Assembly: GCA_036676395.1 (NCBI GenBank)
Contig: JAKFCY010000002.1
Span: 896,001-960,000 of the forward strand
Direction: 5' to 3'
DNA: 64,000 nt
Source of the DNA: Bdellovibrio sp.
GTDB lineage: Bacteria > Bdellovibrionota > Bdellovibrionia > Bdellovibrionales > Bdellovibrionaceae
Below the pieces are notes generated by a model. It was given only the letters and a program-made list of their open reading frames with translations, was not told the origin of the DNA and ran no database searches. This document shows, piece by piece, positions 27,690 through 35,650 of the stretch. The stretch's first letter is position 1. Every line of letters begins with the position of its first letter. The position numbers were made by a program, and so were the translations under genes.

Positions 27690-27796
27690 TTTTTCTCATG
27701 AATAATTTCAAATACTTAGATACGATTTTTCCTAAGAAGCCGAACGGGTTTCGAACTTTTTTATAATAAAATAATTTTAACGATTGGAAGGCGCTT

Positions 27797-28477
27797 ATGG
27801 AAATCGGAATTATAGGTTCAGGAAATATTGGGAGCATTCTTGCGAGTCATCTTACGAAGCTTGGTCATAAAGTATTTATCGCGAACTCGCGTGGCCCAGC
27901 CACTTTAGAAAAAGTAGCTGCCGAAACAGGAGCCTCGCCAGTAACTGTTGAAGATGCAGCAAAGGCGAAAGATATTGTGATCATAACAGTTCCTGAAAAG
28001 GCCATACCTAATCTGCCAATTGAGATCATTTCAAAAAGTTCTGCGATTATAGTTGATACGGGCAATTACTATCCAGCACGCGATGGACAGATTCAAGACA
28101 TTGACGGTGGTTTATCGGAATCAGAATGGGTAGAGCGTATGTTAAAGCGCTCAGTCGTTAAAGCATTTAACAATATTGTAGCGCCAAGTTTAGCTTCAAA
28201 GGCATCACCTGCAAAATCAGCCAGTCGTGTGGCTTTGGCTATATCTGGTGACAATTTACAAGCTAAGCAAAAAGTTTCGGAATTAATTAACGCCATTGGA
28301 TTTGATGTTGTTGATGCTGGTAAGCTTTCAGAATCGTGGAGACAGCAGCCCGGCACACCAGCATATTGTCGCGATTTAACTGCCAGCGAACTCAGATCAG
28401 CGTTGATGCAAGCAGAAGTGAAAAAAATTGATGATTATAGACATGAGGCCAATGAACAAGCACGTCCATATTTTTAG
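27797..28477 (+). CDS. NADP oxidoreductase (F420-dependent family)
   Basis: IGIIGSGNIG, ANSRGP, DTGNYYPARDG, VVKAFNN and SWRQQPGTP motifs. Confidence 0.88.
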   Translation: MEIGIIGSGNIGSILASHLTKLGHKVFIANSRGPATLEKVAAETGASPVTVEDAAKAKDIVIITVPEKAIPNLPIEIISKSSAIIVDTGNYYPARDGQIQDIDGGLSESEWVERMLKRSVVKAFNNIVAPSLASKASPAKSASRVALAISGDNLQAKQKVSELINAIGFDVVDAGKLSESWRQQPGTPAYCRDLTASELRSALMQAEVKKIDDYRHEANEQARPYF

Positions 28478-28511
28478 GGAGCTAAATGGCTCGCAAATAA
28501 GTTCTAAACTC

Positions 28512-28535
28512 GTCCCATTGAGTCCGCCATTTTTT
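28512..28535 (+). repeat. Degenerate copy of the tRNA-Asp 3' end (relict att site)
   Basis: gtcccATTGAGtccgccattttt versus gtcccGTCAACtccgccattttt at 27672-27694. Confidence 0.7.
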
Positions 28536-28547
28536 GATGGGTTAAAG

Positions 28548-28737
28548 TTAAGTACTTAATAAATCTATCGGATCTAAAATCATAAAAATTTTAAGAATCA
28601 GCAAGGGCCAAATAAGGGCCATCGGTGATTTTGGCTTATCTTCAATAGCAAAATCTACGACTCTAACGGCTTGCTTTAAATGAACATGGTTAAGATGCGC
28701 GTAATCCATTGCCTGATCTGAGTAGGAGTTTGCTTAT
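28548..28737 (-). pseudogene. Tyrosine recombinase/integrase C-terminal remnant
   Basis: Minus strand reads SD-QAMDYAHLNHVHLKQAVRVVDF (Tyr codon at 28701-28703). An out-of-frame ISKLL at 28723-28737 precedes it. Together these match the integrase 'xxLLGHS...YAHL...L..AV' signature. Confidence 0.7.
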
Positions 28738-29557
28738 GGGCCCATTGGACGAAAATGAACTTGGAGATAAATTAAAAAGCAATTTATGGGAGCCAGATCC
28801 CAGATCTTTATGCTTTGGCATGATAACGCCAACCATTGATCGCTACATTGAATGGATGTCAAAAGCTAAGCTAAATAAGGAAGTGCCTTTAAGTGTGAGA
28901 CAGTATTTTGCCAGCGCTCGAAATACATTTATTTATTCATTTTACGATTATGGAATGAGTATGCCCGCGCAACTTTACGCTTTTTCAATCTTAGAGAATA
29001 CAATCAAGCGGCGATTTAAAGAGTTGAATATTCAATTTGACGATTCATGCGGCTTGGGAGTGATGTTTAAGTTAGCGAAGAAAGATAATTTTTTTTCCTT
29101 AGAAAGCTTTAATAATGATATTAATATACATGACCAGTTTCATAGATATATACATTATTGGGCGGATCACGGAAGCTCTACATTCATCTATAAAGAACCG
29201 AAGTGCTTCCCAGTAGCGTTTAAGTTTATCGATTATATAAGAATGCGGACCAATAAGTTGATAGCAACTACCCTTAGGCAAATAAAAATAACGGGTAGAA
29301 TTAATGAGTGTATGCATTCTATCGTTAACCGTTTTGCCCAACAAATAAAGTCGATGCTTAGATCAATTTCAAAATATATGTACAAAATTAGACAAAGCAA
29401 ACATCCCGAAAGTTTGCCTAAATTTTCAGGAAAGAGAAATCTTTTGGCTCATGGTCAAGAGATGATGGACTTGCCGTGGGAGGCATCTCATACAATATCG
29501 CTCTGTGCAAAAGGAATAAATAGTCTGTACCATCCAAGTGTTGAGAGCAGATTTTAG
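28736..29557 (+). CDS. HEPN-like domain protein
   Basis: AGGAG RBS before ATG 28736; N-terminal helix ending in ILE and C-terminal RxxxxH (RNLLAHG). Confidence 0.55.
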   Translation: MGPLDENELGDKLKSNLWEPDPRSLCFGMITPTIDRYIEWMSKAKLNKEVPLSVRQYFASARNTFIYSFYDYGMSMPAQLYAFSILENTIKRRFKELNIQFDDSCGLGVMFKLAKKDNFFSLESFNNDINIHDQFHRYIHYWADHGSSTFIYKEPKCFPVAFKFIDYIRMRTNKLIATTLRQIKITGRINECMHSIVNRFAQQIKSMLRSISKYMYKIRQSKHPESLPKFSGKRNLLAHGQEMMDLPWEASHTISLCAKGINSLYHPSVESRF

Positions 29558-29562
29558 CTGTT

Positions 29563-30471
29563 TTAAATGGGTTTGATTTTAGTAATTTCCTCATTAATCC
29601 AGGCTCCAATGTGTGGGAGAAACTTATCTATCATTGCTAAGTGGTACTTAATTCTAATTCCAACAACTGCTTTAATGAGTGAAGTTTTTGTTCGGTGCTC
29701 AATTAAAATAGCGGTTAGCTTAGCAGAGCGTAGGGACTCATTATTTGTGGATAATTTTATATCTTGGGGAATTCCATAAATTATATAAATGCCGCAACCA
29801 CTCATGCCTTTCAAGGAAGGAGCTGTTTGCCAAGTGTCATTAATCACAATTTGAGTGTCGCCAGAAAGAGCTACATGTTCTGATTCATTCAATTTAAGTT
29901 TTGAATACTCATTAGAGTCGAGTTCGAAGAAGCTGCATACATCAATAGGGTTTCGATCAGATCTTTGATAAAATTTCGATCTGCTTGCTATAAATCCAGT
30001 AGCTATATGTAAATGAACACCAGTAGGTTGTGTTAAATCGAGGTGCTCTAAATTTAAAGCACAGCTTTTTATATCATCAGTTACTTGGTCTTTTTGTATA
30101 TGGAAAACTGCTGCATCGAGAGGGTCGTCTTGGTGCGTTCCAGAAGCTCCTTTCCCAGTGCTGAATCGATCTCCATTTAAAAAATGAAATTTGCCCTCGC
30201 AGCCTATGATTACTGGGTAATCTTTGTATTCCTCAATGGCGTGAGATGCTGTGAAAATAAAGTGCTCCGTTGAGAGCTTTATAAGGACCCCAGATGCAAT
30301 TTGTATAGGAGGATTTGATATACCTGGAGGTTTAGATAAATTTAATACGTAAAGTGGAACAGAGGCTTGAGGCATTTTTTTAAGTATATCTCTTGCGGCA
30401 CTAGCTCGGTTTTCAAGTTCTCCAAACATTTTTTTCAGTAAAGGGTGTTTTGGATTAAATTTAGACTTCAT
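29563..30471 (-). CDS. Cytoplasmic trypsin-like serine protease
   Basis: ASGVLI...FTASH (His), LDAAVF (Asp), GMSGCG (Ser); no signal peptide; likely start MKSKF at 30471. Confidence 0.7.
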   Translation of the reverse strand: MKSKFNPKHPLLKKMFGELENRASAARDILKKMPQASVPLYVLNLSKPPGISNPPIQIASGVLIKLSTEHFIFTASHAIEEYKDYPVIIGCEGKFHFLNGDRFSTGKGASGTHQDDPLDAAVFHIQKDQVTDDIKSCALNLEHLDLTQPTGVHLHIATGFIASRSKFYQRSDRNPIDVCSFFELDSNEYSKLKLNESEHVALSGDTQIVINDTWQTAPSLKGMSGCGIYIIYGIPQDIKLSTNNESLRSAKLTAILIEHRTKTSLIKAVVGIRIKYHLAMIDKFLPHIGAWINEEITKIKPI

Positions 30472-30612
30472 TTTAACATTATAACTTCGGAGTGAATAAT
30501 TGCGAGAGTACTTTAAATTGGGGCAGTGTGTTTGAGTGTTTTGTGTAACAGCTTGCATTTTAAGCAACACCTTCGTTGTCAGTTTAATTATTAAGTGATT
30601 GAATACTCGAAG

Positions 30613-31653
30613 ATGAGTGGGCCAACGACTAAAAATATATTAATTGATCCCAAGGATGTTAGCGTACCTCCAGAAATTAAAGAGGCCGCGATAATGGGGA
30701 ATTTAACCATCTTTGTTGGCAACGGAGTGTCTCGCCTATATGGCCTCCCATCTTGGAATGGTCTTGCTGATGCAATGCTAAAATCTTTAGTTAATAATAA
30801 GCAAATAAATCACAACACTCACGAATTATTATTAAAGTATCCAATAAAAACTAAAATTTCGATTGCCGATCGTTTTTTTAAGCAGAATTTAGCAACTGGT
30901 GCATATTCTGATATGTATTATGGTTCAATGTTGAAAGTCGATGAAGCCGTTAAAAAAAAGATTTTTACGTATAGTTTGATTGCGAAATGTGGCTGCAAAT
31001 TTATAACGACTAATTATGATTTATTATTCGCCGAAGCATTGAATGGAAACCTTGTCGAAACGGGAGATATTAACCGTGCCGACGTTGAAAATCAGGGATC
31101 GCAAGAAAAAATAGCTGTAAAGAAATCTCAAAGTTATGAAGTAATTAGTAGTCTTAACGATTTTTCCAAAACTAATGTTTTAGAAAAAAACTTTTTAGTT
31201 CATTTGCATGGTTCACTTAGTGATGAAAGTAAAATCGTTGCATCGACAGCTGATTATTTAAATTTATATAGTAATGAAGATAACAGAGATAAACTCACGC
31301 AGATTTTTGATAAGCAAACAGTAGTGTTTATTGGTTATGGGCTTGATGAGTTGGAGATCTTGGAATTCATTTTTAAAGCTGCTAACAGAGAAAGTGGTAG
31401 TCAGTTTTATTTACTGCTCTCACTATTATCTCATGAACTAGAAGTAATACAGCATTTAGAGCAGTACTATAAAGAACAGTTAAATGTCACATTGCTAACA
31501 TATTGCCGAGATCAAGAAGGTTATCTTGCATTGAATCAAGTCGTTGAGAACTGGGCAAAAGAGTTAGAAGGTTTGGTTCAATCTCCGAATCAACCTTTCA
31601 AATTTAGAGTACTGGAAGGTTTGATGAAAGACCATGAGAAGGCGGACTTGTGA
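30613..31653 (+). CDS. SIR2-like (SIR2_2) NADase-domain protein
   Basis: IFVGNGVS...LPSW, ITTNYD, HLHGS and VFIGYGLDE motifs. Start is 30613 (ATG) or 30595 (GTG). Confidence 0.88.
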   Translation: MSGPTTKNILIDPKDVSVPPEIKEAAIMGNLTIFVGNGVSRLYGLPSWNGLADAMLKSLVNNKQINHNTHELLLKYPIKTKISIADRFFKQNLATGAYSDMYYGSMLKVDEAVKKKIFTYSLIAKCGCKFITTNYDLLFAEALNGNLVETGDINRADVENQGSQEKIAVKKSQSYEVISSLNDFSKTNVLEKNFLVHLHGSLSDESKIVASTADYLNLYSNEDNRDKLTQIFDKQTVVFIGYGLDELEILEFIFKAANRESGSQFYLLLSLLSHELEVIQHLEQYYKEQLNVTLLTYCRDQEGYLALNQVVENWAKELEGLVQSPNQPFKFRVLEGLMKDHEKADL

Positions 31654-34472
31654 AAAAAAGCCAGCTAGCAACGCAAATTATTGAAGTAATTTCCAAAGAT
31701 GAAAGTAGCTCGACTTATTTCTTTGGTAATTCAAAAGATCCAGATTTGTTTATTCCGTTAAAAGAAGCAGGTTTCTTTGATATCTCCAAAGTGCCGCCAA
31801 TTATTCGTATTGACGAGTCCAAATATAGATATCCTCAGTGGCCACAAAATCATTATTTAAAAATGGTCGCTCAAGCACTTCGAAAAAATGAAGAGGTGCG
31901 TAGCAAAAACATTACTAAGTTCTTAGAAACACTTCGAAATCTATACCCAATTGGAGACAATCAAATAATAGCGGATTTCGTGTTCGAGTGTGTCACTTTG
32001 TTGCCTTTGGAACACTTGGAAATTTCTGATGTTCAATCTATTTTCAAGCTGTTTGTGCCGTCTAAACACAGAAACACCTTAGCTGAGATGGTTGTATTTG
32101 ATGGATTTGAAAACATTCTTGGATCAGTGAAAAATGATGAAAAATCTAAGACCATATTGTCTGAATACGTTAAAAATATGTTTGACGCCAAATTGGCTGG
32201 AGAATCATCACGAGAAGAATTAATGTTTTTCGGCTATAGAGGTCTTGAGTATTTCATACCTAAACATTTCGATTTGGAAAAAACTTACTCTGAAAAATCT
32301 TTTGTATTTGAAGTTATAATTGAAGTTTTATCGGGGCTTTTGGAAAGAGAAGTTGATGATGATGGGACCGAGAAAAGTTCTCAAATTTGGAGACCTGCGA
32401 TAGAACCCCATTCACAAAATAATTATCGTACAACTCCCCCAGCTATATATGTAGAAGTGCTTTTCATGTTATCTACATTTATGCTTGGAAAAAATCATAG
32501 CTTGCCGATTGTAGATAAATGGAAAAGGAAAAAATCTGAAATCTTTACGAGAATAAGTATTGCTCTTGCGACTGACTTTCCACAGCTTGTGACGATTGAT
32601 GTTAAGGGTACAATAATTGACAATTTGGATTTTTACACAGTCGCTAGACATGAAATTTTTCGATATTTGAAGACCCATTTTGGGATGTTTGATACCTCTT
32701 TGAAGAAGGCGCTATTAGAAAAAATCAAGAGTTTAAAATATGTAGATAAAAACTCTGTATATACAGAAAGCGACATAGAACAGATAAGTGCAAATGAACA
32801 AATGAGATGGTTGTTAGCTATAAATCATACGGGGGACAAAGATGTTCAATCTCTGTATAATGCCGTATTTGCCATAACTAATCGAGAAGTTGAGCATCCA
32901 GATTTTTCTACGTACATGAGCTCAGGATGGTATGGTCCGAAGTCTCCTTGGGCAATTGAAGATTTTGCTAAGGCAAAATCTGATGAAATTTTTGATAAAC
33001 TTATTAATTTTAAAGATTCTGATTCATTTCGTGGACCCACCAAAGACGGATTGGCGCGAGTTTTTGAAGAGTATATCCTACAGGATCCACTAAAGTGTTC
33101 AGCTCTTTTAAGCAGACTGCTTGAGTTGGATTATGACTATTGTACTGGTGTTTATAATTCCTATACCAAAAGTTGGAGTGAAAAAAAGTATGTTCCTGTA
33201 GATAAATTGTTAAGTTTAGCGCTTCAATTCTTTAATGATTCAAAGTTTGTAGCTGAATTAACTAACAAGCGTTCAAGATCTCAATGGTTAGCTGCTTCAA
33301 TTTTTAAATTTGTCGATGTTGGTACGAGGGATGACAAAAATGCTTTCGATCCAAAGCATAATCCTGAATGTTGGAAAATTCTATGTAAAGCTGAACAGGT
33401 TACTGTATCTGATTCAGATTATGTGGGTTCGTCTGATGCGTTTACTAGAGCGCTTAATGAGCCACGTGGAAAGTTATTTGAAGCAGCGATAGTTTTAGCC
33501 TTGAGAGATGCTCGGCTTGCTTCGAAAGATGCAGCTATCGTGGCTACTGTATGGAAAAAATTATATGAACTATTGAAACCTTCTCTTGAAAGAACAGAAG
33601 TAACGGAAATTTCATTACATGCTCAGATCGGCGCGCACTATAGACAGTTAATGTTCTTAAATGAAAAATGGATTTTTGAAAACTTAGAGTTAATTGCTCC
33701 GCTTGATAAATCTCGTGAAATGCTATGGTTAGCATTTATGGAAGGTTTTTCGTATGTCTCCGCTTATGTTAAGGAAATGTTTTTGACTCTTGAAAACAGG
33801 GGGGATTTAAAAAGATTTCTGCGGTTCAAATTAGACTCTGGTGAAAACAATAGCCGATTGGACAGACTTCAAGACAGAGTTATTGAATTGTCTATAGTTG
33901 CTTTAGTCATGGAGGATGTAACTACAGATTCAACGGTGTTTCAGGCAATTGTTTCTGGGCGTGATGAGGATGAATGGCGTAAGCTAATTTGGTCATTTTA
34001 TGGTGTAGTAGTTGGAAGTAAAAAGCAGGAATACTTTGAAAAAGCCAAAAAGACAGTCTTTGATTTAATTACTAATTTTGAAAATACAGAAAAAGATTTA
34101 AATTGGATGAAACTATTTAAAGGAATAGATCAAATGTTGGCTCTTGTTGCTGATCCTAATGAAGCTATTGTTGATAAAATAGTAGAAATAGATGCGCGAA
34201 ATAGCGAAGGCGGCTGGGATATGAATGATGTTATAGGGTTTCTTCATAAATTTAAAAACTCGCATACTAATCGTATAGGCGAGCTTTTTCTCAAAATTAT
34301 AAACTTGGCACCAGCTCCTCCGTCTTGGCCTGATGATAAAATATATGAAATTGGAATAGCATTGCAGTCAGAACGGCCTTTACTTGTGACTATTTGCAGA
34401 GCTTATACTGACAAGTCATTTTCTCAGGACTCGCCGATATATAAAGCTTGTAAAGACTGCGGCATAATTTAA
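31650..34472 (+). CDS. Large, probably alpha-helical hypothetical protein, partner of SIR2
   Basis: 940-aa ORF; GTGA overlap with the SIR2 stop; no signal peptide or P-loop seen. Confidence 0.8.
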   Translation: MKKSQLATQIIEVISKDESSSTYFFGNSKDPDLFIPLKEAGFFDISKVPPIIRIDESKYRYPQWPQNHYLKMVAQALRKNEEVRSKNITKFLETLRNLYPIGDNQIIADFVFECVTLLPLEHLEISDVQSIFKLFVPSKHRNTLAEMVVFDGFENILGSVKNDEKSKTILSEYVKNMFDAKLAGESSREELMFFGYRGLEYFIPKHFDLEKTYSEKSFVFEVIIEVLSGLLEREVDDDGTEKSSQIWRPAIEPHSQNNYRTTPPAIYVEVLFMLSTFMLGKNHSLPIVDKWKRKKSEIFTRISIALATDFPQLVTIDVKGTIIDNLDFYTVARHEIFRYLKTHFGMFDTSLKKALLEKIKSLKYVDKNSVYTESDIEQISANEQMRWLLAINHTGDKDVQSLYNAVFAITNREVEHPDFSTYMSSGWYGPKSPWAIEDFAKAKSDEIFDKLINFKDSDSFRGPTKDGLARVFEEYILQDPLKCSALLSRLLELDYDYCTGVYNSYTKSWSEKKYVPVDKLLSLALQFFNDSKFVAELTNKRSRSQWLAASIFKFVDVGTRDDKNAFDPKHNPECWKILCKAEQVTVSDSDYVGSSDAFTRALNEPRGKLFEAAIVLALRDARLASKDAAIVATVWKKLYELLKPSLERTEVTEISLHAQIGAHYRQLMFLNEKWIFENLELIAPLDKSREMLWLAFMEGFSYVSAYVKEMFLTLENRGDLKRFLRFKLDSGENNSRLDRLQDRVIELSIVALVMEDVTTDSTVFQAIVSGRDEDEWRKLIWSFYGVVVGSKKQEYFEKAKKTVFDLITNFENTEKDLNWMKLFKGIDQMLALVADPNEAIVDKIVEIDARNSEGGWDMNDVIGFLHKFKNSHTNRIGELFLKIINLAPAPPSWPDDKIYEIGIALQSERPLLVTICRAYTDKSFSQDSPIYKACKDCGII

Positions 34473-34618
34473 CAAAATATTCTGTGCTTGTTGCTGATAT
34501 TCGTCGCAGGATGAAATGTAATGAACTTCGAACTTTTCAGAGGGAAAGGTTATTTTTTTACTCGGCGTATCGAACGGAAGCGGGCTATTTTTAGCGGAAC
34601 TAACTAAAAAGGAATTTT

Positions 34619-35650
34619 ATGTCTAAAAAGAAGATCGTAGTAGATAAAAGCAACCAAGATACGAGAAGAATACAGGTTGATATTAGCAAGTACAATTCGA
34701 GCCAGAATCAGTTATTGGGTCTGATGAAAAATCCCTTATACAATCAGATGGAATTATTTAAAAACCCTATCAAGGATATGTTTAAAGTTAACCAACCGTG
34801 GCTAGGTGTAGAGAATCCATTTCTAAATCGTACAGAACAGCTGAACAGGCAATTGAATTCATTCTCAATTCCACAACCAGCCTTAATTGCCTTGGAGGTT
34901 TTAGAACGTCAGAATTCTCTTTTCGAGCAATTTAAATCGATAGCAATTCCAGAATGGAGTATTATTGGGAAAGGCATCTTTGAGCGGTTGTTCGAGGTTG
35001 AAAAAGAATTGGAGCCGATTCTAAAAGAGGATATGGTGTTTGTTCCCCCTTTTCTGATGAAGCTAACTGCATCAGAAATTCAAAAGCTCTTTTCACAACC
35101 AGGTAAAAAGCCTGTTGAAATTTATGAAGAGATTTTTGAAGATGAAAATAATTTATACAGTCTGATTGAAGAGTGGAGTGAACATGAATACTTAGGGGAA
35201 AGAATAGTTCACCTTAAGTCAGCAATTGCAGCTCATCAGAGAAGAGATTACGCAGCATCTATTCCATTATTTCTAATTCACATAGAAGGAGTGTTGACTG
35301 ATGTTCTAGCAGTTAAGAATCACTCACAATTTGAATCAAAATTAAAGAAATTATTGCCAAAAACTGAAGTTGCCTATCCCGATATTTCGGGTGCCGATAC
35401 GCTCGCTGATATTGTTTGTCGTGAAATTTTTGAATCTAGCTACAATCTTGAAAGAAAGCCAGAAAAGAATAAATACCCGAATCGTCATGAAATTTTACAT
35501 GGTAAGGACCTAAATTATCACAAGGTCCCTTTTGCATCGACCAGATGTATTTTAGTATTAGACTTGCTTAGAATTAGCGAGCTAAATCCAAAACTTGTTG
35601 AGACGAAGGTTTTCAAATCCGGACATGTGGCTCTCCATTATGCGAAGTAA
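34619..35650 (+). CDS. HEPN-like domain protein
   Basis: AIAAHQRRDYAASIPLFLIHIEG and NRHEILHG (RxxxxH) motifs; AAGGA RBS. Confidence 0.6.
   Translation: MSKKKIVVDKSNQDTRRIQVDISKYNSSQNQLLGLMKNPLYNQMELFKNPIKDMFKVNQPWLGVENPFLNRTEQLNRQLNSFSIPQPALIALEVLERQNSLFEQFKSIAIPEWSIIGKGIFERLFEVEKELEPILKEDMVFVPPFLMKLTASEIQKLFSQPGKKPVEIYEEIFEDENNLYSLIEEWSEHEYLGERIVHLKSAIAAHQRRDYAASIPLFLIHIEGVLTDVLAVKNHSQFESKLKKLLPKTEVAYPDISGADTLADIVCREIFESSYNLERKPEKNKYPNRHEILHGKDLNYHKVPFASTRCILVLDLLRISELNPKLVETKVFKSGHVALHYAK

Follow-up and report, generated by a model that had tools for sequence, protein, structure and literature searches.

A probable two-gene version of the DSR1 anti-phage system in a variable island of Bdellovibrio sp.

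DSR1 (defence-associated sirtuin 1), reportedly going back to Gao et al. 2020, is a single polypeptide in which a SIR2_2 NADase domain is followed by a helical sensor of ~900 amino acids (aa). The subject of the present work is a pair of overlapping genes, found in a 64,000-nucleotide (nt) stretch of DNA from Bdellovibrio sp. (NCBI GenBank assembly GCA_036676395.1, contig JAKFCY010000002.1, positions 896,001 to 960,000 of the forward strand; this whole stretch is called the window, and coordinates refer to it), which likewise encode a SIR2_2 domain and then a sensor, as two separate proteins. According to a preprint by Garb et al. (10.1101/2021.12.14.472415), DSR1 depletes nicotinamide adenine dinucleotide (NAD+) and confers protection from phi29, and the sensor of E. 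coli Dsr1 (EcDsr1) has been described as being triggered by the phage major capsid protein (PMC12803255, PMC13581612). Lee et al. (Nature 2026, PMC13581612), who studied the Dsr1/Avs7 sensor family, report a TPR sensor that is common to Avs7 and Dsr1, has two lobes and wraps around the major capsid protein of HK97 fold. We read the pair in the window as the DSR1 anti-phage system in a natural form with two genes and give this reading a probability of about 0.85.

Homology of both proteins to DSR1

The two open reading frames (ORFs), hereafter the SIR2 gene and the sensor gene (Table 1), are real open frames rather than chance ones, because many homologues of the same lengths exist; an alternative GTG start of the SIR2 gene at 30595 would lengthen its product to 352 aa. 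A single PADLOC model of Dsr1 (PDLC04166, 1227 positions) spans both proteins in order, the SIR2 protein covering positions 11-304 (E 2.7e-45) and the sensor positions 309-1221 (E 2.5e-71), and a search of the bacterium's own genome agrees with this. The two genes thus together encode a protein of DSR1 type that is divided at the border of effector and sensor, as had been supposed in an earlier note made on this DNA from its letters alone. A fused metagenomic relative, P0132 (1280 aa; E 9.2e-126 against PDLC04166), carries the two parts end to end: its residues 7-350 correspond to residues 10-345 of the SIR2 protein with 44% identity and its residues 355-1277 to residues 3-935 of the sensor with 36% identity, ~4 residues lying between the two alignments.

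The relation extends to canonical Dsr1. Canonical genes were drawn from a set of 401 gammaproteobacterial genomes, in which five exceeded the 1400 bits that the NCBIfam Dsr1 equivalog NF041818 sets as its cut-off. The alignment used here consists of four full-length genes, of which three exceed that cut-off and the fourth, L045, falls short of it with 916 bits. When the sensor profile is compared with this alignment by hhalign (98.7%, E 2.9e-16, 600 columns), sensor residues 237-908 are aligned with residues 606-1238 of canonical Dsr1. The sensor carries the motifs WRPAIEPHSQN at residue 247, EHPDF at 415 and ALNEPRG at 601, which the earlier note had associated with the C-terminal regions of long SIR2 proteins; the association is borne out for the first and the last, which hhalign pairs with QPSISEHPQN and AINHPVG of canonical Dsr1. 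As a separate observation on genes of this kind, one gammaproteobacterial genome (G064:C1:20503-32957) holds two tandem Dsr1-like genes with open frames of 1201 and 1244 aa; both are below the NF041818 cut-off, and in the first the matched region contains a TAG.

The SIR2 protein stands alone and its TTNYD and HLHGS motifs are intact, as previously noted, at residues 132-136 and 197-201. It is matched by Pfam SIR2_2 (E 4.3e-19), and a PDB sequence search with its profile finds the closest solved relative in DSR2, whose SIR2 domain matches with E 1.8e-18. In the profile alignment N134 and H199 pair with N133 and H171 of DSR2, the latter being the residue changed in the H171A mutant named in the PDB 'DSR2 H171A' entries, and both N134 and H199 are invariant in 26 homologues. 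The SIR2 protein is consistently better conserved than the sensor, with 47% vs. 32% identity at locus L004 and 33% vs. 20% at L010, which would fit a fast-evolving sensor but is no proof of one.

No Pfam family is found in the 940-aa sensor. Its AlphaFold2 model, built from a 20-row alignment, is of good confidence and consists of helices throughout (mean predicted local distance difference test score, pLDDT, 85.2; predicted template modelling score, pTM, 0.62), so that the sensor is predicted to be an all-alpha solenoid. The best match of the sensor profile in the PDB sequence search is to Spo0A with E 0.19, which we take as chance, and that search found no solved structure of DSR1. Searches of the sensor model with Foldseek against the PDB and with VIA-align wide returned generic HEAT/ARM solenoids only and no specific relative, with template modelling scores of 0.2-0.3 and Z scores of up to 14, which are usual for helical repeats; Avs4 (8dgf) stands at rank 17. 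The partner had been said to have no Walker A motif, and indeed the pattern [AG]x4GK[ST] is absent from the sensor and from the SIR2 protein alike; neither contains a hydrophobic segment, the highest Kyte-Doolittle mean over 19 aa being 1.31.

The junction and the distribution of the split form

At the junction, the GTG of the sensor gene overlaps the TGA of the SIR2 gene, and the sensor frame is closed by a further TGA at 31635-31637; both features can be read directly in the sequence, in agreement with the earlier note. The overlap, together with the purine-rich GAGAAGG that precedes it within the end of the SIR2 gene (Table 1), would couple the translation of the two proteins. Over positions 30300-34800, promoter-like matches occur at chance level (15 found vs. 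15.4 expected), and no terminators were found in a scan of the same region. Logan contigs from four runs belonging to two studies span the junction with 0 differences and 0 indels; among the runs listed as holding the sequence none was of RNA.

Relatives of the pair are arranged in the same way in other genomes. All eight sensor homologues returned by a word-based protein search are 728-959 aa long, and the nearest named one, A2504_16965, adjoins by its locus tag the SIR2 homologue A2504_16960. A scan of genomes gave 36 loci, in 13 of which a SIR2 ORF (286-395 aa) is directly followed by a stand-alone sensor ORF (903-1071 aa); these 13 include members of Bdellovibrionota, Arenicellales, Planctomycetales, Ignavibacteriaceae, Neomarinimicrobiota and Bathyarchaeia as well as Methanobacterium oryzae. 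Three further loci of the 36 are fused (1224-1231 aa), one (L032) is in pieces, and the remaining 19 are either cut by contig ends or hold a SIR2 gene without a match to the sensor model. The fused and adjacent homologues that the earlier note had proposed to look for therefore exist, although the co-occurrence of the two genes is not absolute. In the 14 split loci formed by these 13 and the window, the sensor frame is offset by 0, 1 or 2 relative to the SIR2 frame, and the junctions comprise, among others, six 4-nt ATGA/GTGA overlaps, four 8-nt overlaps and one in-frame TAA-TGA-ATG. The occurrence of all three frame relations at such tight junctions excludes a shared artefact or a programmed frameshift as the explanation. 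The candidate of a programmed frameshift giving a fused protein had also been considered for the window itself, where no slippery site is present at the junction, and was rejected.

The metagenome scan gave 80 loci. In 60 of them a SIR2 gene immediately precedes a stand-alone sensor, in seven the ORF upstream of such a sensor is not SIR2, and five have a fused gene, the others being truncated (4/80), cut by a contig end (3/80) or without an upstream ORF in view (1/80). The fused-type PADLOC model, run over 401 genomes of the phylum to which the window belongs, matches in six, namely three clear two-gene pairs (the window included), one locus with internal stops, one with the sensor only and one fused. 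At locus L022 (L022:4956-9048), a 339-aa SIR2 gene overlaps the following ORF of 1029 aa, which is possibly a different or very divergent partner. Decayed copies of both the window-clade sensor and canonical Dsr1 were also encountered (L032, L065, L078, L120 and L125; G151 and G179, with stops inside the match), and decay of sensor and Dsr1 genes is common.

A profile search of 1.84 billion representatives yielded 7270 proteins with E <= 0.001, of which 3390 reached E <= 1e-30. Among the best 150 representatives, 111 are 890-1000 aa long and have no N-terminal Pfam domain, as expected of a stand-alone sensor, and 17 are 1201-1350 aa long, all 17 with SIR2_2; another 17 measure 1061-1150 aa and have a TIR domain in eight cases, four are under 890 aa and a single one of 1036 aa has no N-terminal domain that could be found. 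The non-SIR2 effectors in the metagenomes, whether fused or separate, are TIR domains or weakly pP_pnuc_1-like nucleases. The same sensor family is fused to TIR at L079, L080 and L093 and to pP_pnuc_1 at L100 and L107, and separate upstream ORFs with weak pP_pnuc_1 matches stand beside the sensor at L114, L118, L123, L124 and L126. TIR and 'pPIWI-associating nuclease'-like domains are the same effectors as are known in short pAgo systems.

A FastTree phylogeny of 166 sensor regions, which is a single approximate-likelihood tree rooted on canonical Dsr1, groups the window sensor with five others, all six being stand-alone sensors (support 0.985), and gives this clade the fused P0132 as its sister (0.894). 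The split and the fused state are interleaved in this tree, with 29 parsimony changes over 162 in-group leaves vs. a shuffled mean of 34.2 (minimum 28) and with nine mixed split/fused sister pairs at a support of at least 0.95; the states were set by protein length alone, and some of the apparent switches could be sequencing indels. A speculative extension, which we regard as rather unlikely, is that in the family of DSR1-type sensors the junction between effector and sensor acts as an evolutionary toggle. With overlaps of 4-8 nt, the change of one base could turn a one-gene locus into a two-gene locus or the reverse; the free-standing sensor would be a portable module that can be re-paired with SIR2, TIR or a nuclease, and the split form might be activated by release or exchange of the effector instead of a change inside a single chain.

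Proposed mode of action and competing explanations

In a two-gene version of DSR1, the SIR2 gene would make an NADase with an intact catalytic pair, Asn134 and His199, and the sensor gene would make an alpha-solenoid sensor of ~900 aa equivalent to the C-terminal part of single-chain DSR1. The two proteins would assemble as a non-covalent complex equivalent to the fused protein; the sensor would bind a phage protein, upon which SIR2 would hydrolyse NAD+ and phage replication would be blocked. Complex formation, NADase activity, the trigger and defence itself are what we infer by analogy with characterised DSR1. A complex predicted for the SIR2 protein and residues 1-650 of the sensor lends weak support to their association: the interaction prediction score from aligned errors (ipSAE) is 0.48 vs. 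0.00 for the best control, a value to be read against a calibration in which, at an ipSAE of 0.60 or below, 18 of 157 solved complexes passed and so did both of the two mismatched pairs, among 215, that passed at all. The prediction runs share at least 93% of their contacts, and the pLDDT of the partner is at least 79.

It could be argued that the locus is nothing but a fused DSR1 gene that a frameshift has disrupted, whether as a young pseudogene or through a mistake of sequencing or assembly near 31638-31650, as a 1-nt deletion between the stop of the sensor frame and the GTG would fuse the two frames, fused relatives exist and an A7 run follows the junction. The A7 run, however, lies 3' of the SIR2 stop codon and for that reason is unable to rescue the frame, and the contigs of the four runs agree without any indel. 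Moreover, the genome and metagenome loci counted above are split at the same protein position, in all frame relations and with proper start codons, and the nearest relatives in the clade of six are all of stand-alone length. We thus consider a broken gene very improbable: the two-gene junction is genuine and not a frameshift artefact, the comparative evidence for this being stronger than that of the contigs. Even less credence is due to a housekeeping or regulatory sirtuin, e.g., a deacylase, joined to a HEAT-repeat scaffold and unconnected to phage defence. Protein deacylases do occur among SIR2 domains, and the generic HEAT/ARM scaffolds returned by the fold searches would suit such a role, but the SIR2 protein sits in the SIR2_2/DSR branch, the pair is absent from all the relatives searched and resides in a low-GC island missing in a congener (see below), and family members with the same sensor are described in the cited reports as experimentally defensive.

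A different mode of activation deserves more attention, though we still hold it to be quite unlikely. The sensor might keep SIR2 inactive and release or exchange it on binding a phage protein, whereupon free SIR2 would oligomerise and become active, or the sensor might serve other effectors in trans. Separate polypeptides would allow such dissociation, and the pairing of one sensor family with SIR2, TIR or a pP_pnuc_1-type nuclease, fused or encoded as separate upstream genes, would be in keeping with it, as would the SIR2 homologue that occurs without a sensor at locus L006 and the filaments reported for some antiphage-type SIR2 proteins in the FAM118B paper (PMC12700824). Against this stands the almost random interleaving of split and fused forms in the tree, which argues that the two are functionally interchangeable, and the 4-8-nt overlaps, which suggest a fixed stoichiometry.

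Several observations weigh against this two-gene DSR1 reading. The junction was checked on assembled contigs rather than on raw reads, and three of the four runs perhaps represent the source sample. The metagenome loci and the representatives were drawn with split-form profiles, and as a result the split-to-fused ratios are biased. At L006, in a member of Bdellovibrionales, a close SIR2 homologue of 393 aa with 41% identity (L006:4971-6152) has no large downstream partner and is an orphan effector, and the SIR2 genes of L022 and L024 have no match to the hidden Markov model of the sensor alongside. Residues 1-236 of the sensor are left unaligned to canonical Dsr1 by hhalign. The cut-off of NF041818 is not reached, the SIR2 protein scoring 25.2 bits and the sensor giving no match at E <= 0.1, and even among the fused relatives of the window's clade 16 of 21 match this model at 15-79 bits and five do not match. 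This failure indicates a distant sister clade of the tested Dsr1 proteins, and the trigger known from the latter is therefore not transferable. The NAD+ depletion caused by DSR1 is reported by Garb et al. to be only transient and without growth arrest (10.1101/2021.12.14.472415), which makes the outcome for the cell uncertain. Finally, a full-text literature search, whose coverage did not extend to Supplementary Table 8 of Lee et al., where split entries are possibly listed, returned no article in which the split form is described or tested; the methods of that study do mention the handling of 'split proteins' (PMC13581612).

The earlier note had gone further and proposed an undescribed system, and this part of it has to be given up, since a single PADLOC Dsr1 model is matched by the two halves along their whole length, the sensor is homologous to that of canonical Dsr1, and pairs of this form abound in public data. 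A split form that is common in nature and homologous to DSR1 counts as a variant of a system already known, not as a kind of its own, and the pair opens no new class of immunity. Its significance lies elsewhere. The NCBIfam equivalog NF041818 misses both halves, which constitutes an annotation gap, and a single-gene definition of Dsr1 could miss or mislabel the common split form. The split form is also a natural experiment, in that its halves can be purified, mixed and swapped in order to ask how a solenoid sensor activates a SIR2 NADase, and the interleaving of split and fused forms, together with the TIR and nuclease pairings, illustrates the shuffling of defence modules.

The variable island and comparison with known systems

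The pair is located in a low-GC variable island together with four other ORFs (Table 1). At the same site of the congeneric genome G421, the flanks, which are 90-93% identical, are 35 bp apart. The GC content is 0.34-0.37 over ~28.5-35.5 kb, i.e., most of the island, vs. ~0.40-0.43 outside. Neither repeats nor att sites that convincingly flank the island were found, and no integrase-like ORF was seen in it. A search of 60 relatives, including 36 from the same genus, did not find the sensor, and the distribution of the pair is patchy. When the other island ORFs were sought alongside the pair in other loci, one weak match was obtained, that of the 282-aa ORF in L023; the neighbours are not conserved with the pair, which is therefore self-contained.

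Table 1. Features of the SIR2-sensor locus and its island, in window coordinates.
Feature	Position	Strand	Remarks
SIR2 (SIR2_2) gene, predicted NADase effector	30613..31653	+	ORF, ATG start, TGA stop, 346 aa
DSR1-type sensor gene (partner)	31650..34472	+	ORF, GTG start, 940 aa
GTGA start/stop overlap, split junction	31650..31653	+	Read directly in the sequence
Purine-rich Shine-Dalgarno-like GAGAAGG	31636..31642	+	Within the end of the SIR2 gene, 7 nt 5' of the sensor GTG
Low-GC variable island, ~7.9 kb, six ORFs (pair and four others)	27719..35650		Absent in congeneric G421
ORF of 282 aa, no known family	28709-29557	+	One weak tblastn match in L023 (96 aa, 29%, E 7e-7), ~1.7 kb 3' of the SIR2-sensor pair there
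ORF of 335 aa, divergent from the SIR2 gene	29563-30570	-	PADLOC LmuA PDLC03855, E 6.5e-10, positions 17-168 of 425
ORF of 343 aa, directly 3' of the sensor gene	34619-35650	+	Weak PADLOC REase_II match, E 0.0077

The LmuA-like ORF divergent from the SIR2 gene also leads in the ESM Atlas to Peptidase S1/Trypsin_2 clusters (10% share), and no LmuB or LmuC is present near it; its product is possibly a stand-alone trypsin-like defence protease. The ORF directly 3' of the sensor gene has no Pfam or NCBIfam family and only unnamed clusters in the ESM Atlas, and is not kept beside the pair elsewhere.

Thoeris, SIR2-HerA and SIR2-APAZ/pAgo systems likewise place a SIR2 NADase effector beside a partner gene, and each was considered for the window and rejected. 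ThsA of Thoeris, a protein with a SLOG/STALD domain that is accompanied by a TIR gene, ThsB, matches the SIR2 core only (PADLOC, E 3.9e-7), and no Pfam or PADLOC match to TIR or ThsB exists among the neighbours. For SIR2-HerA, the sensor has neither a Walker A motif nor a match to the HerA family and its model is all-alpha, and for the short pAgo system SIR2-APAZ (SPARSA) no Pfam or PADLOC match to pAgo or APAZ was obtained on the partner or the neighbours. The view of the earlier note that the partner is not recognisably TIR/ThsB, HerA or pAgo is thus upheld by the absence of any such family match and by the match to the Dsr1 sensor over its whole length.

DSR2 of Bacillus subtilis (PDB 8k98, 8wyb) provides the closest solved SIR2 domain, with the catalytic Asn and His aligned, and is described as sharing the same logic, a SIR2 domain combined with an alpha-solenoid that senses a phage structural protein. 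It is reported to be a single chain sensing the tail tube protein, unlike the two genes of the window; as to a DSR2-type MID/CTD sensor, no DSR2 chain is matched by the sensor profile in the PDB sequence search, and DSR2 is absent among the listed fold matches, though the solenoids may be similar. Any likeness to Avs7 would be by way of the Dsr1 sensor. Avs7 has a STAND NTPase between effector and sensor, whereas the window pair has no Walker A motif and bears its SIR2 effector on a separate protein; the SIR2 protein stops after 346 residues, and the start of the sensor corresponds to position 309 of the Dsr1 model. Dsr1 itself is one polypeptide, whereas the window holds two overlapping genes that lie far below the NF041818 cut-off, and P0132 shows the same two parts, collinear with the window pair, in a single ORF.

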